Positions 26,515 to 50,923 are shown, counted from the first letter of the stretch. The stretch: DNA of 64,000 bases from Escherichia coli (GCF_044324785.1 NZ_CP172127.1); one strand, 5' to 3'. Notes: a model not told the origin generated them from the sequence alone. Program-made: numbers and translations.

Positions 26515-27174
26515 ATGGCTAACTGGTTAAATCAACTGCAATCCCTGCTTGGGCAAAGCAGTTCTTCTACCTCCTCGTCTGCGGATCAGGGATTGGGCAA
26601 ACTTTTAGTGCCTGGCGCATTAGGCGGACTGGCTGGGCTGCTGGTCGCAAATAAATCAGCACGTAAACTTCTTACGAAATATGGCACCAACGCGTTGCTG
26701 GTTGGCGGCGGAGCGGTAGCGGGTACGGTGCTGTGGAATAAATACAAAGATAAAATTCGCGCGGCGCATCAGGACGAACCGCAGTTTGGCGTGCAGAGTA
26801 CGCCGCTGGATGAGCGTACGAAACGTTTGATCCTTGCGCTGGTCTTTGCCGCTAAAAGTGATGGTCATATTGATGCCAAAGAACGTGCGGCAATCGACCA
26901 GCAATTGCGTGAAGCCGGCGTGGAAGAGCAGGGGCGTGTACTCATTGAGCAGGCAATCGAACAACCGCTGGATCCACAACGCCTGGCTACCGGGGTCCGC
27001 AATGAAGAAGAGGCGTTGGAAATCTATTTCCTGAGCTGCGCGGCTATTGATATTGACCATTTTATGGAACGCAGTTACCTGAATGCACTGGGTGACGCGC
27101 TGAAAATCCCGCAGGATGTTCGTGAAGGCATTGAACGCGATCTCGAACAGCAAAAACGCACTTTGGCGGAATAA
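26515..27174 (+). CDS. yebE: Inner membrane protein YebE (DUF533)
   Basis: 219-aa ORF recognised as YebE. Confidence 0.9.
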
Positions 27175-27306
27175 TTCCGCTCTCTGGATAGCCTGAAGTT
27201 GACGATTTCGGGCTATCCAGAACCGCACAGCCATTTGAGCAGGCTGATTTTCTCTGTCTGCATAACATTCGATATCCGCGCCATTACCTGTCATCATGTG
27301 ACTGCT

Positions 27307-27326
27307 CCCCGCCCTGTCGGGCGAGG
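27307..27326. repeat. Right-end subterminal hairpin of the IS (CCCCGCCC-tgtc-GGGCGAGG)
   Basis: Imperfect palindrome 12 nt past the tnpB stop codon; near-identical copy at the other end. Confidence 0.65.
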
Positions 27327-27337
27327 CTTCCCACTTC

Positions 27338-28507
27338 TTAAGCCGCAACCGTCTGTGTGACGGATTTACGCTGGCCTCCATGGGCAGAAACGACGAGTCC
27401 CGCCGCTTGTAATTCCAGTATGCCCTTGCGTTTGATGTTGAGCGCCGCGTTGATATCGCGGTCATGTTCAACTCCACACTCTGGACACTGCCAGATGCGC
27501 TTATGTAATGGCATCTCCGACATTTTGTGACCGCAGCAGTGGCAGGTCTTCGAACTGGCGAACCATTGATCCAGTTTCACCAGATGCACACCTTTCTCTG
27601 TTGCTTTGTATTCCAGTTTTGTGATGAATCCAGACCATCCAGCATCGCCTATCGCACGAGCCAGATGGTGATTTTTCATCATATTTGCCGTTTTCAATGT
27701 CTCGACAATTACCGCTTGGTTTTCGTCAACAATTGCGCGAGATAACTTGTGCTGGAAATCGGCACGGGCACTAGCTACCCGTTCGTGAACGGCTGCAAGT
27801 TGTATTCTGGCTTTGCGCCTGTTTGCGCTCCCTTTTTTCTTACGGGACAGTGCTTTCTGCTTCCGGCGCAGGTTGCGACTTGCATTGATTAGGTGGCGGG
27901 GACTGGCAATTTTATTGCCGTCCGATTTGATGACAAAATGCGCCAGCCCCATATCCAGCCCTGTCACATTTGATATCAGTGCGGGCTTTGCCGGCGCTTC
28001 CATCCCGTCGTCACAGAGTAACGACGCGTAGTATTTCCCGGTTGCGCTGCGGCTCAACGTGATACTTTTCAGCATTCCCGTAATTTCACGATGTAAACGC
28101 GCTTCAATCGGCAAGATTTTCGGTATTTTTATCGCACCATCAAGGACTTTTATGCCAACACAATGATAGCTCGATTGTCTGCCGTGTTTACTTTTAAAGG
28201 TTGGTTTACCTGCTTTCAGTTTCGGATTGAAAAAGTTAGAAAAAGCCACGTCGAGGTTAATTACCGCCTGCTGCAACGCAATAGAATCATATTCTTTAAG
28301 CCATCCATACCGGCGGGATTTCTTCGCCACTGCAAGCAGTGGTTTGAGGTCTTTACGCGGGTTTAAATTTACGCGGTGCCGCTGGTAAGAATGTTTCTTG
28401 ATATGCAGAGCTTTGTTGTACGCAAAACGCACTGCACCGAACTGGGCGTTGATAAATTCAGCCTGTTCTGGTGTCGGGTAGATGCGTACTTTTGTTGCTC
28501 TTAACAT
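27338..28507 (-). CDS. tnpB: TnpB (IS605 OrfB family; RuvC-like RNA-guided endonuclease)
   Basis: 389-aa ORF; RuvC-I GLDMG, RuvC-II E in VIVETL, zinc finger CHCCGH...CPECG, RuvC-III HDRDINAALNI. Confidence 0.9.
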   Translation of the reverse strand: MLRATKVRIYPTPEQAEFINAQFGAVRFAYNKALHIKKHSYQRHRVNLNPRKDLKPLLAVAKKSRRYGWLKEYDSIALQQAVINLDVAFSNFFNPKLKAGKPTFKSKHGRQSSYHCVGIKVLDGAIKIPKILPIEARLHREITGMLKSITLSRSATGKYYASLLCDDGMEAPAKPALISNVTGLDMGLAHFVIKSDGNKIASPRHLINASRNLRRKQKALSRKKKGSANRRKARIQLAAVHERVASARADFQHKLSRAIVDENQAVIVETLKTANMMKNHHLARAIGDAGWSGFITKLEYKATEKGVHLVKLDQWFASSKTCHCCGHKMSEMPLHKRIWQCPECGVEHDRDINAALNIKRKGILELQAAGLVVSAHGGQRKSVTQTVAA

Positions 28508-28563
28508 AATCAGCGCTCATTGATATAATGCTTTTATTTTAACACTTTAGGTGGATATATCAA

Positions 28564-28989
28564 TTGAGTAATCATGATGATTTACTGGCGGGATTTCTCC
28601 GCAAACGACACAGTGTCAGTAAGCTGGTTGTGCACCTTATTTTTACGACAAAGTATCGACGCAAACTATTCGACAGTCAGATGATCGCTCAGTTGCGTGA
28701 GGCTTTTGGCTCCGCTGCGGCAAAGCTTGAATGCGAAATTATTGAGATGGACGGGGAGCCAGACCATGTACACCTGCTGGTTGCCTACCCGCCAAAACTG
28801 GCGGTCAGTGTGATGGTCAATAATTTAAAATCGGTATCATCACGTTTGCTACGCCAGCAGAACGCGCATTTACGTATGCAGAGTAAAACGGGGCTTTTGT
28901 GGTCGAGATCGTACTTTGTCTGTAGCACCGGAGAGGCAACGATTGAAACGCTCAGAGCCTACGTTCAGAGTCAGTCAACACCTGATTGA
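28564..28989 (+). CDS. tnpA: IS200-type Y1 (HuH) transposase TnpA
   Basis: 141-aa ORF; TTKYRR block, HuH motif HVHLLV, C-terminal catalytic Tyr (RAYVQSQ); only in-frame start is TTG at 28564. Confidence 0.85.
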   Translation: MSNHDDLLAGFLRKRHSVSKLVVHLIFTTKYRRKLFDSQMIAQLREAFGSAAAKLECEIIEMDGEPDHVHLLVAYPPKLAVSVMVNNLKSVSSRLLRQQNAHLRMQSKTGLLWSRSYFVCSTGEATIETLRAYVQSQSTPD

Positions 28990-29022
28990 TCTTTAAAGCC
29001 CTGCGGGCTTTTCGCCTTATAT

Positions 29023-29044
29023 CCCCGCCCGCATTGGGCGAGGG
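29023..29044. repeat. Left-end subterminal hairpin of the IS (CCCCGCCC-gcatt-GGGCGAGGG)
   Basis: Near-identical to hairpin at 27307-27326; lies just beyond the tnpA terminator-like hairpin (28994-29011). Confidence 0.65.
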
Positions 29045-29118
29045 TTTACGGCGTTTTTCGCTAAGCAATGACTACCCTGTTTCGCTTGCATCTCCGGTGA
29101 GTTTTGCCACCCTTATAA

Positions 29119-31865
<2,747 letters not shown>

Positions 31866-34690: not shown

Positions 34691-34777
34691 AACATTTAAG
34701 CTGATGACCACCGCGCTTTTTATTGACCATTTTGCACGCAAACTGGAAAACCTGGCGTCGTCATCTATTCTTAAAGG

Positions 34778-34880
34778 GCAAGGCAACTAAGCCTGCATTA
34801 ATGCCAACTTTTAGCGCACGGCTCTCTCCCAAGAGCCATTTCCCTGGACCGAATACAGGAATCGTGTTCGGTCTCTTTTT
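34778..34880 (+). ncRNA. sdsR: SdsR (RyeB) sigma-S-dependent small RNA
   Basis: Sequence gcaaggcaactaagcctgcattaatgcc...gaccgaatacagg-aatcg-tgttcggtc-TCTTTTT recognised as SdsR; sigma-S-like -10 CTATTCTTAA just upstream; terminator hairpin plus U-run at 3' end. Confidence 0.85.
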
Positions 34881-35014
34881 ATCTGTTAAAAGCCAGAAGC
34901 ATTCCCTTCGCTGACTTTATAGTCAACCATAACACACACTCTACTGTCTGAGTCCAGCGTTTTTTAACATTCTTGTTAAGATTATGTGATCTTTAGCGCG
35001 GGAGGAAAATATTG

Positions 35015-49723: not shown

Positions 49724-50392
49724 TCCTTCCTCAATCTTGAGTAACCCCGTCGTTGAAGGGTTACTCAATTCATCCTGATTATACGCACTGCCATGGTGCA
49801 ACTGCTTCAAATTAAAACTCTGGTCTGACTTCAAATAATTATCATATTATTTATTTGCGTAACGGGATATCAGAAAAAGATATTTAGCCCATTAATTTAT
49901 TAGGATGTTTACATCGGATTTGTGATTAAGTGTGGTATTATTTATTAGCGAAACGTTTCTCTCTTGATTTTTTTGCGCATTCATCAATTTTTCTTATTTT
50001 AAATTTACAATACCTTTGGCGATTGACTTCTCTTTGGGGTGATTGATAGCCGTTAACTGACTGTTTTATGAGAAAAAGTGATATAACTTTTTATTCATTG
50101 CATAGCAGAAAATGTGATATTGCACGCACTATGTAATAACTTCTCCCATTGGCCTGGAACAACTGAACTTATTGAACTATGTTAGAAAATACGTCAGTTT
50201 AAGTATCTGCCTGAACTGGCAAGGTTAAGCACAATGATATATCGGCGCGTATTCCGTTGCATAAGTGTGCAAAAAAAGTGGAAGACGTATCGAGATTTGT
50301 GCGTCTGATCGAGACATGTTTAAAAATGGCTTGCCATAATTAACGTTGTATGTGATAACAGATTTCGGGTTAAACGAGGTACAGTTCTGTTT

Positions 50393-50536
50393 ATGTGTGG
50401 CATTTTCAGTAAAGAAGTCCTGAGTAAACACGTTGACGTTGAATACCGCTTCTCTGCCGAGCCTTATATTGGTGCCTCATGCAGTAATGTGTCAGTTTTA
50501 TCTATGTTATGCCTGCGGGCGAAGAAAACAATCTAA
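50393..50536 (+). CDS. yobF: Small protein YobF (47 aa)
   Basis: ATG..TAA encoding [47 protein letters not shown], 12 nt upstream of cspC; below ORF-track cutoff. Confidence 0.8.
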
Positions 50537-50548
50537 GGAATTTTTCAA

Positions 50549-50758
50549 ATGGCAAAGATTAAAGGTCAGGTTAAGTGGTTCAACGAGTCTAAAGGTTTTG
50601 GCTTCATTACTCCGGCTGATGGCAGCAAAGACGTGTTCGTACACTTCTCTGCTATCCAGGGTAATGGTTTCAAAACTCTGGCTGAAGGTCAGAACGTTGA
50701 GTTCGAAATTCAGGACGGTCAGAAAGGTCCGGCAGCTGTTAACGTAACAGCTATCTGA
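50549..50758 (+). CDS. cspC: Cold-shock-domain protein CspC
   Basis: 69-aa ORF; RNP motifs KGFGFI and VFVHF. Confidence 0.96.
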
Positions 50759-50803
50759 TCGAATCCACTGATCTGAAGTGTGAATACGCTTCAATCTCGC
50801 TAT

Positions 50804-50830
50804 AAAGCCTCGTCGAATGCGAGGCTTTTT
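50804..50830 (+). terminator. Rho-independent terminator after cspC
   Basis: aaagcctcg-tcgaat-gcgaggcttt hairpin followed by T-run. Confidence 0.8.
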
Positions 50831-50923
50831 ACTTTGCTTTCTCTTCGCTCCAGTCGTTCGGATATTTGCCCGCCGCGTGATTCGCGTTACACTTGCGGCC
50901 TTTAGTATCCTGCCGGAGTTGTC

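Follow-up and report, generated by a model that had tools for sequence, protein, structure and literature searches.

Exact ends, active strand and target site of an ISEc46 insertion in the yebE-ptrB spacer of Escherichia coli

Introduction

The insertion sequence (IS) IS605 of Helicobacter pylori carries divergent tnpA and tnpB genes, with its left end beside the 3' end of tnpA and its right end downstream of tnpB, and it is reported to insert after TTTAA or TTTAAC. Elements of the IS200/IS605 family depend on a fixed tetra- or pentanucleotide: they insert 3' of it, so that on the active strand it borders their left end (PMC3201880; PMC8612924). In IS608, the left cleavage site (CL) TTAC lies 19 nt 5' of the foot of the left hairpin and the right cleavage site (CR) TCAA lies 10 nt 3' of the right hairpin, while the left and right guides (GL, AAAG; GR, GAAT) stand 5' of each foot, A+16 pairing with T-3 and A+17 with T-4 (PMC3201880; PMC5934647). 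Base triplets in IS608 involve an AT dinucleotide located 3' of the left hairpin, and a second hairpin 3' of the left imperfect palindrome (IPL) has been reported for IS608, ISDra2 and IS605 (PMC5934647). An RNA of about 150 nt in ISDra2 spans the 3' end of tnpB and the right end, together with some 16 nt of flanking sequence; it leads TnpB to cleave the donor joint once this has been resealed, and the target of TnpA serves as the transposon-associated motif (TAM) (PMC8612924; 10.1101/2023.03.14.532601). Here, we describe a pair of hairpins in a 64-kb stretch of Escherichia coli DNA (NZ_CP172127.1), referred to below in its entirety as the window. They are almost certainly the left subterminal imperfect palindrome (IPL) and its right counterpart (IPR) of one intact copy of ISEc46, a member of the IS200/IS605 family. 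The element is already known and its family well understood; what is given here is its base-exact anatomy.

Hairpins and exact ends of the element

On the plus strand, positions 27307-27326 read CCCCGCCCtgtcGGGCGAGG, i.e. CCCCGCCC-tgtc-GGGCGAGG, and positions 29023-29044 read CCCCGCCCgcattGGGCGAGGG, i.e. CCCCGCCC-gcatt-GGGCGAGGG, the last block being GGGCGAGG plus a final G. The two hairpins are direct, not inverted, relative to each other, and the pattern CCCCGCCC-N4-5-GGGCGAGG occurs twice in the window versus 0.00 times in 100 dinucleotide-preserving shuffles. Both are imperfect palindromes whose 8-bp stem holds one non-Watson-Crick position, where the plus strand has a C.A mismatch and the minus strand a G.T wobble. 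The original prediction, made from the sequence alone, had placed two near-identical direct hairpins at exactly these coordinates and had read them as marking the ends of an IS200/IS605 element. Both claims are borne out. Other copies of the element end identically and include both hairpins, and the reading frames between the hairpins of the window encode TnpA and TnpB.

The ends are fixed to the base by an empty site. The element sits in the spacer between yebE and ptrB, flanking genes that identify the window as E. coli chromosome, and the K-12 (DH5alpha) yebE-ptrB spacer contains 178 nt that equal window positions 27200-27297 (98 nt) followed directly by 29061-29140 (80 nt). No base is duplicated or missing, hence there is no target-site duplication, and the composition of the empty site defines the element as 27298-29060, 1,763 bp. 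The earlier estimates, which put the ends some 10 and 19 nt outside the hairpins and the size at roughly 1.77 kb, came close: the actual distances are 9 nt on the left-hand side and 16-17 nt on the right-hand side, the 19 and 10 nt having been borrowed from IS608.

Boundaries were compared across seven independent insertions, namely the window's own and six at other sites: two chromosomal, beside a tRNA-Arg island (L002) and within an IclR-family gene (L009), and four on plasmids, i.e. an IncHI1B plasmid (L004), an Enterobacter plasmid (L005, 88% identical), a Serratia plasmid (L006, 83% identical) and an IncY plasmid carrying a tnpA-less derivative (L007). L003, which is the window's own yebE-ptrB insertion in another strain, was not counted as independent. 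The boundaries are identical in 7/7 insertions, and each of the near-identical copies measures exactly 1,763 bp. The comparison with further genomic copies that had been proposed at the outset thus gave one answer, as L002, L003, L004, L005, L006, L007 and L009 share both ends and both hairpins; the hairpins likewise recur in each relative that was compared. Comparing the first 40 nt with the reverse complement of the last 40 nt yields 13/40 identities, about what chance would give, and no terminus-to-terminus inverted repeat is among the 25 longest inverted-repeat pairs listed. The absence of inverted repeats at the termini rules out a transposon with terminal inverted repeats.

The name ISEc46, an ISfinder name found in 23 papers and in routine use in E. 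coli genome surveys, is taken from the RefSeq annotation of matching copies by the NCBI Prokaryotic Genome Annotation Pipeline (PGAP). TnpA of the window matches WP_000064873.1 ("IS200/IS605-like element ISEc46 family transposase") with 100% identity, PGAP uses the name for both WP_000064873.1 and WP_000064874.1, and RefSeq labels the second gene of identical copies "RNA-guided endonuclease InsQ/TnpB". Over the whole 1,763 bp, the element is 99.4-99.9% identical to copies annotated as ISEc46, and nothing detectable sets it apart from ISEc46 as a system.

TnpA, TnpB and the spacer between them

The hairpins flank two divergent open reading frames, tnpB on the minus strand and tnpA on the plus strand. 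The tnpA gene (28564..28989, plus strand, TTG start) encodes a Y1 HUH transposase of 141 aa, in which HVH (residues 68-70) and Tyr133 (motif LRAYVQSQ) align with solved TnpA structures. It matches Pfam Y1_Tnp over the full model (6.1e-39) and NCBIfam transpos_IS200 at 141.8 bits (cut-off 55); among structures, it matches IS608 TnpA (2a6m/2vjv) at about 5e-19 and ISDra2 TnpA (2xm3) at 6e-15. The tnpB gene (27338..28507, minus strand) encodes a 389-aa protein of the RNA-guided endonuclease family, with RuvC-type motifs GLDMG (183), VETL (268) and HDRD (348) and a CxxC...CxxC zinc ribbon. Its Pfam matches are HTH_OrfB_IS605, OrfB_IS605 and Cas12f1-like TNB, NCBIfam guided_TnpB scores 342 bits (cut-off 100), and residues 4-380 match the ISDra2 TnpB structures 8bf8/8exa (E = 3.6e-74). 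Judged from their sequences, both proteins appear intact.

The 56-bp spacer between tnpB and tnpA (28508..28563, strand not assigned) contains promoter-like sites arranged back to back, both of them consensus matches only. The one facing tnpA is TTAACA-17-TATAAT on the plus strand at 28501-28529 (11/12, with TG), and the one facing tnpB is TTGATA-16-TAAAAT on the minus strand at 28563-28536.

Active strand and target site

The top (active) strand of the element is the window's minus strand, and by family convention its left end is 29060 and its right end 27298. The original prediction was silent on this point, so this is a refinement of it. In every insertion, the minus strand reads: unrelated flank-TTAG/CGAAAAACGCCGTAAAC(CCTCGCCC-loop-GGGCGGGG)AT...GAAG(CCTCGCCC-gaca-GGGCGGGG)AGCAGTCAC/unrelated flank, where slashes mark the ends of the element and parentheses the hairpins. 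The tetranucleotide 5'-TTAG abuts the left end in 7/7 independent insertions and does so solely on the 29061-29064 side, the flanks being otherwise unrelated, and the flank beside 27297/27298 is unrelated in all seven. Since the empty site already contains TTAG, this tetranucleotide belongs to the host. Its presence on the 29061-29064 side only, together with the insertion rule of the family, identifies the minus strand as the top strand. The flanking target tetra- or pentanucleotide that was to be found by comparing copies is therefore 5'-TTAG (29064-29061, minus strand), which is CL, the cleavage site on the left, as well as the predicted TAM of TnpB.

A second line of evidence comes from natural variation in the stems. 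Among ten distinct hairpin variants, drawn from 14 loci, 79/80 stem positions are Watson-Crick or G.T pairs on the minus strand; read on the plus strand, those G.T pairs turn into C.A mismatches. As far as stem sequences can tell, this G.T asymmetry is in independent agreement with the minus strand as the top strand.

Guides, cleavage sites and end architecture

On the minus strand, the left end carries IPL, CCTCGCCC-aatgc-GGGCGGGG (29023..29043, the right-hand hairpin of the original drawing), whose foot lies 17 nt from the left terminus; the distance is 16 nt to the hairpin as first drawn, and 17 nt to the foot of the 8-bp stem. Directly 5' of this foot is the left guide GL, AAAC (29044..29047, minus strand), which pairs with TTAG under the IS608 scheme. 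At the other end, IPR, CCTCGCCC-gaca-GGGCGGGG (27307..27326, minus strand; the left-hand hairpin of the original drawing), begins 12 nt past the tnpB stop codon and reaches to within 9 nt of the right terminus. The right guide GR, GAAG (27327..27330, minus strand), lies 5' of its foot and is invariant in all copies. The right cleavage site CR, TCAC (27298..27301, minus strand), forms the last four bases of the element, and all copies end in ...GTCAC followed by unrelated flanks.

By IS608 positions, the left end pairs AAAC with TTAG as T:A, T:A, A.A and G:C, and the right end pairs GAAG with TCAC as T:A, C:G, A.A and C:G; of these assignments, only A+16:T-3 and A+17:T-4 are quoted from the papers, those at -1 and -2 being read off the tetranucleotides here. 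Read in this way, the IS608 pairing scheme is kept in ISEc46, although the partners at position -1 differ at either end. ISEc46 also has the AT dinucleotide on the 3' side of its left hairpin. A second left-end hairpin, AAAGCCC-tgc-GGGCTTT (28995..29011, strand not assigned), lies just past the tnpA stop codon. Its stem is mostly kept among relatives (L007 and L012 each change one stem position) and its loop varies (GCA, GAA, TTA); on the plus strand it may also serve as a weak tnpA terminator.

The pairing scheme is further illustrated by a natural covariation. In the tnpA-less relatives L011, L012 and L014, located on P1-like and IncI plasmids, GL is GAAC, not AAAC, and these GAAC-variant elements abut TCAG, not TTAG, in 3/3 independent insertions. 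A change from A to G at guide position 1 predicts a TCAG flank under the IS608 scheme, as seen. One sequence considered as an empty site for the TCAG variant, L015, has a right flank unlike that of L011 and confirms the left boundary only; the boundary of the TCAG variant rests on the query ranges of database matches and the three independent insertions, not on L015.

Predicted omega RNA at the right end

By analogy with the right-end element RNA (reRNA) of ISDra2, we infer that an omega RNA covers the right end of ISEc46 and carries a guide taken from the flank. Its predicted scaffold comprises the 3' end of tnpB and the right end (27298..27410, minus strand; the 5' limit is approximate), and its predicted 16-nt guide, ATGATGACAGGTAATG, is the host flank 3' of the right end (27282..27297, minus strand). 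In the empty allele, ATGATGACAGGTAATG comes directly 3' of TTAG, which is the ISDra2-style arrangement of TAM plus target. The last ~110 nt of the element are near-invariant among relatives that are 80-88% identical elsewhere, and within this block the predicted stems are kept while the loop of one hairpin varies (CCGTC-NNACA-GACGG). Folded as a single sequence, the right-end RNA has a z-score of -2.85.

Two results are weak points of this prediction. Rfam returned no match to it, either at a permissive E-value across 26900-29400 or at gathering thresholds across the whole window. In addition, RNAalifold on seven right ends finds conserved stems with almost no compensatory changes (covariation term -0.05), a shortage that follows from the near-invariance of the right-end block.

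The same region raises a possibility that adds to, rather than competes with, the role of IPR as a transposition signal: IPR (27307-27326) might also form, at the RNA level, the final stem of the omega RNA scaffold, immediately ahead of the guide, so that its near-invariance would reflect two constraints. We regard this as quite conceivable, if somewhat short of an even chance. IPR falls between the stop codon of tnpB and the element's terminus, inside a region whose ISDra2 counterpart gives rise to the ~150-nt reRNA, and RNA folds keep it as a separate stem. Across the relatives with 80-88% identity, moreover, the right hairpin has only two single-base variants (L011 and L012), and the left hairpin varies more. 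Against this stand the missing Rfam family for the right-end RNA and an alignment that offers no compensatory changes, and the conservation could be explained by TnpA binding alone.

Alternative readings of the hairpins

With guides, cleavage sites and the predicted RNA in place, the opposite strand can be weighed. If the plus strand were active, the left end would be 27298 and the right end 29060, and the hairpins would be used as CCCCGCCC...GGGCGAGG. This is how the original prediction wrote them, and tnpA lies on the plus strand here, just as tnpA is encoded by the top strand in IS608 and ISDra2; the DNA folding energies, for their part, are alike, the 29023-29044 hairpin giving -11.6 kcal/mol on the plus and -11.5 kcal/mol on the minus strand. 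Nevertheless, the flank beside 27298 is unrelated in 7/7 insertions while that beside 29060 is always minus-strand TTAG, and natural stem variants are all G.T on the minus and C.A on the plus strand. Furthermore, pairing between guides and cleavage sites works on the minus strand alone, and tnpB with a right end downstream of it, as an omega RNA arrangement requires, is found on the minus strand. The plus strand is rejected as the active strand on the one-sided conserved flank and the G.T asymmetry, and we consider it very improbable.

One observation remains a weak point of the preferred reading. GC skew of the plus strand is positive in 8/8 8-kb bins of the window (overall +0.020; at third codon positions +0.032), which makes the plus strand the lagging-strand template and puts the top strand of the element on the leading-strand template. 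The latter orientation has been reported as disfavoured for single-strand excision and insertion of IS200/IS605 elements (PMC8612924), so the window copy, with its top strand on the strand of negative GC skew, has the less favourable orientation. A single insertion does not contradict a statistical orientation bias, and the orientation might itself contribute to the stability of this copy.

That the hairpins are ordinary transcription terminators or repetitive extragenic palindromic (REP)-like host palindromes rather than transposition signals, as their G+C-rich stem-loops and their positions just past gene ends (the tnpB stop precedes one by 12 nt, the tnpA stop the other by 33 nt) could suggest, has next to no chance of being right and is rejected: they are missing from the empty site, travel with the element to plasmids and other genera, keep fixed distances to the exact ends, share one orientation although the two genes are divergent, have no T-run after either and are not called by the terminator scan, and their pattern occurs nowhere else in the window.

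Proposed mechanism

Taking the minus strand as active, ISEc46 would be expected to follow the IS608/ISDra2 paradigm, from which single-strand chemistry, an omega RNA with its guide and TTAG as the TAM are inferred. For strand-specific "peel and paste" transposition, the natural stem variants, which fit G.T pairing solely on the minus strand, give indirect evidence. A dimer of the Y1 HUH TnpA would bind both hairpins when the minus strand of the window is single-stranded. Recognition of the cleavage sites would fall not to the protein but to the tetranucleotide that stands 5' of each hairpin foot, with GL AAAC pairing with the flank TTAG and GR GAAG with TCAC at the end of the element. TnpA would then cut after TTAG (29061/29060) and after TCAC (27298/27297), releasing a single-stranded circle and resealing the donor without a scar, with the donor joint reading ...GCTTAG/ATGATGAC..., and the circle would be reinserted 3' of another TTAG. 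In parallel, an RNA that takes in the 3' end of tnpB and continues across the right end into flanking DNA would direct TnpB to cut the resealed empty site (TTAG then ATGATGACAGGTAATG), and recombination would restore the element.

Distribution and relatives

Copies covering at least 80% of the element are found in 455/5,426 complete E. coli genomes, with a median of one place per genome and a maximum of five. The exact junction on the yebE side is common to 400/5,426 of these genomes, which points mostly to one inherited insertion; placement of the active strand on the leading-strand template may be a reason why this same insertion persists in so many of them. Related elements and fragments have also spread to plasmids, among them those of Salmonella, Escherichia, Klebsiella and other genera.

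Derivatives that lack tnpA, about 1.33 kb long and made up of left end, tnpB and right end, are present on P1-like, IncY and IncI plasmids (L007 1502-2830; L011 808-2139; L012; L014 1605-2940). In L011, the 260 nt proximal to the right end are 98.8% identical to the window and the whole match is 84.6% identical; L011 looks, from this comparison, like a mosaic of two lineages. It is a speculative thought, and one we hold to be rather unlikely, that the ISEc46 lineage holds naturally "retargeted" variants whose TnpB perhaps reads TCAG as its TAM, with strand placement of the chromosomal copy explaining its persistence. If TnpB of these variants does also read TCAG as a TAM, they would constitute a natural experiment in the joint change of the TnpA guide and TAM recognition by TnpB.

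Solitary right-end remnants of 38 nt, made up of GR, the right hairpin and the terminal AGCAGTCAC, occur with 100% identity to the window on several E. coli plasmids (L013 1501-1538; matches H143-H150), and the one in L013 sits between hokD and an IS3-family element. In L008 (~1460-1500) and L010 (~760-800), the right end on the top strand, ...AGTAGTCAC, is directly followed by CAAAT-CCTCGCC-aatacggat-GGCGGGG-AAAAGCC, which is a left-end-like hairpin of a diverged relative. This suggests a tandem or nested insertion or a joint-like structure; in both loci tnpB is frameshifted and tnpA truncated.

Other features of the window

A near-perfect stem-loop of 15 bp at 27183-27221, just past the yebE stop codon, is presumably the yebE terminator. 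A sub-threshold match to an Rfam microRNA model at this position, the only local Rfam match in 26900-29400, is taken as chance. Elsewhere, the window contains ordinary E. coli RNA genes, i.e. the overlapping SraC/RyeA and SdsR/RyeB pair (34740-34884), a cspA-type thermoregulator leader (50373-50833) and the small RNA ES036 (1714-1755), and no tRNA genes were found in its 64 kb.

Comparison with known systems

All of these results fall within the established knowledge of the IS200/IS605 family. The gain is mainly one of annotation, as a named but little-characterised element now has base-exact ends, an active strand, a target and predicted TAM (TTAG), and guide and cleavage tetranucleotides. 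Beyond annotation, the results extend the IS608 recognition scheme to a distantly related enterobacterial element, one natural covariation included, and a TnpB close to that of ISDra2 with a predicted 4-nt TAM could be of possible interest for mining compact genome editors.

The closest described systems differ in what they share with ISEc46. IS608 from H. pylori, the structural and biochemical paradigm, shares with ISEc46 a subterminal imperfect palindrome at each end, both on one strand, a left cleavage and target tetranucleotide outside the element, and guides 5' of each foot with the same pairing scheme. Neither element duplicates its target or has terminal inverted repeats, and both possess a second hairpin at the left end as well as the dinucleotide AT 3' of the first. 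The specifics diverge: the target is TTAG in ISEc46 and TTAC in IS608, the right cleavage site TCAC versus TCAA, the guides GL AAAC and GR GAAG versus GL AAAG and GR GAAT, and the spacings 17 and 9 nt versus 19 and 10. Moreover, tnpA and tnpB are divergent in ISEc46 but co-directional in IS608, and the similarity of the two TnpA proteins is just E ~5e-19.

In its gene order, which on the top strand runs from the left end through tnpA (reversed) and tnpB to the right end, ISEc46 has the IS605-type arrangement, although IS605 differs from it in host, sequence and target. For TnpB, the nearest system is ISDra2 of Deinococcus radiodurans, whose protein is closely related over nearly its full length (E = 3.6e-74). 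As in ISDra2, the right end of ISEc46 lies downstream of tnpB, its flank would be available as a 16-nt guide, and the TnpA target is expected to be the TAM. That motif is TTGAT in ISDra2, in contrast to the predicted TTAG of ISEc46, and the genes of ISDra2 are co-directional and overlapping, unlike the divergent pair described here.

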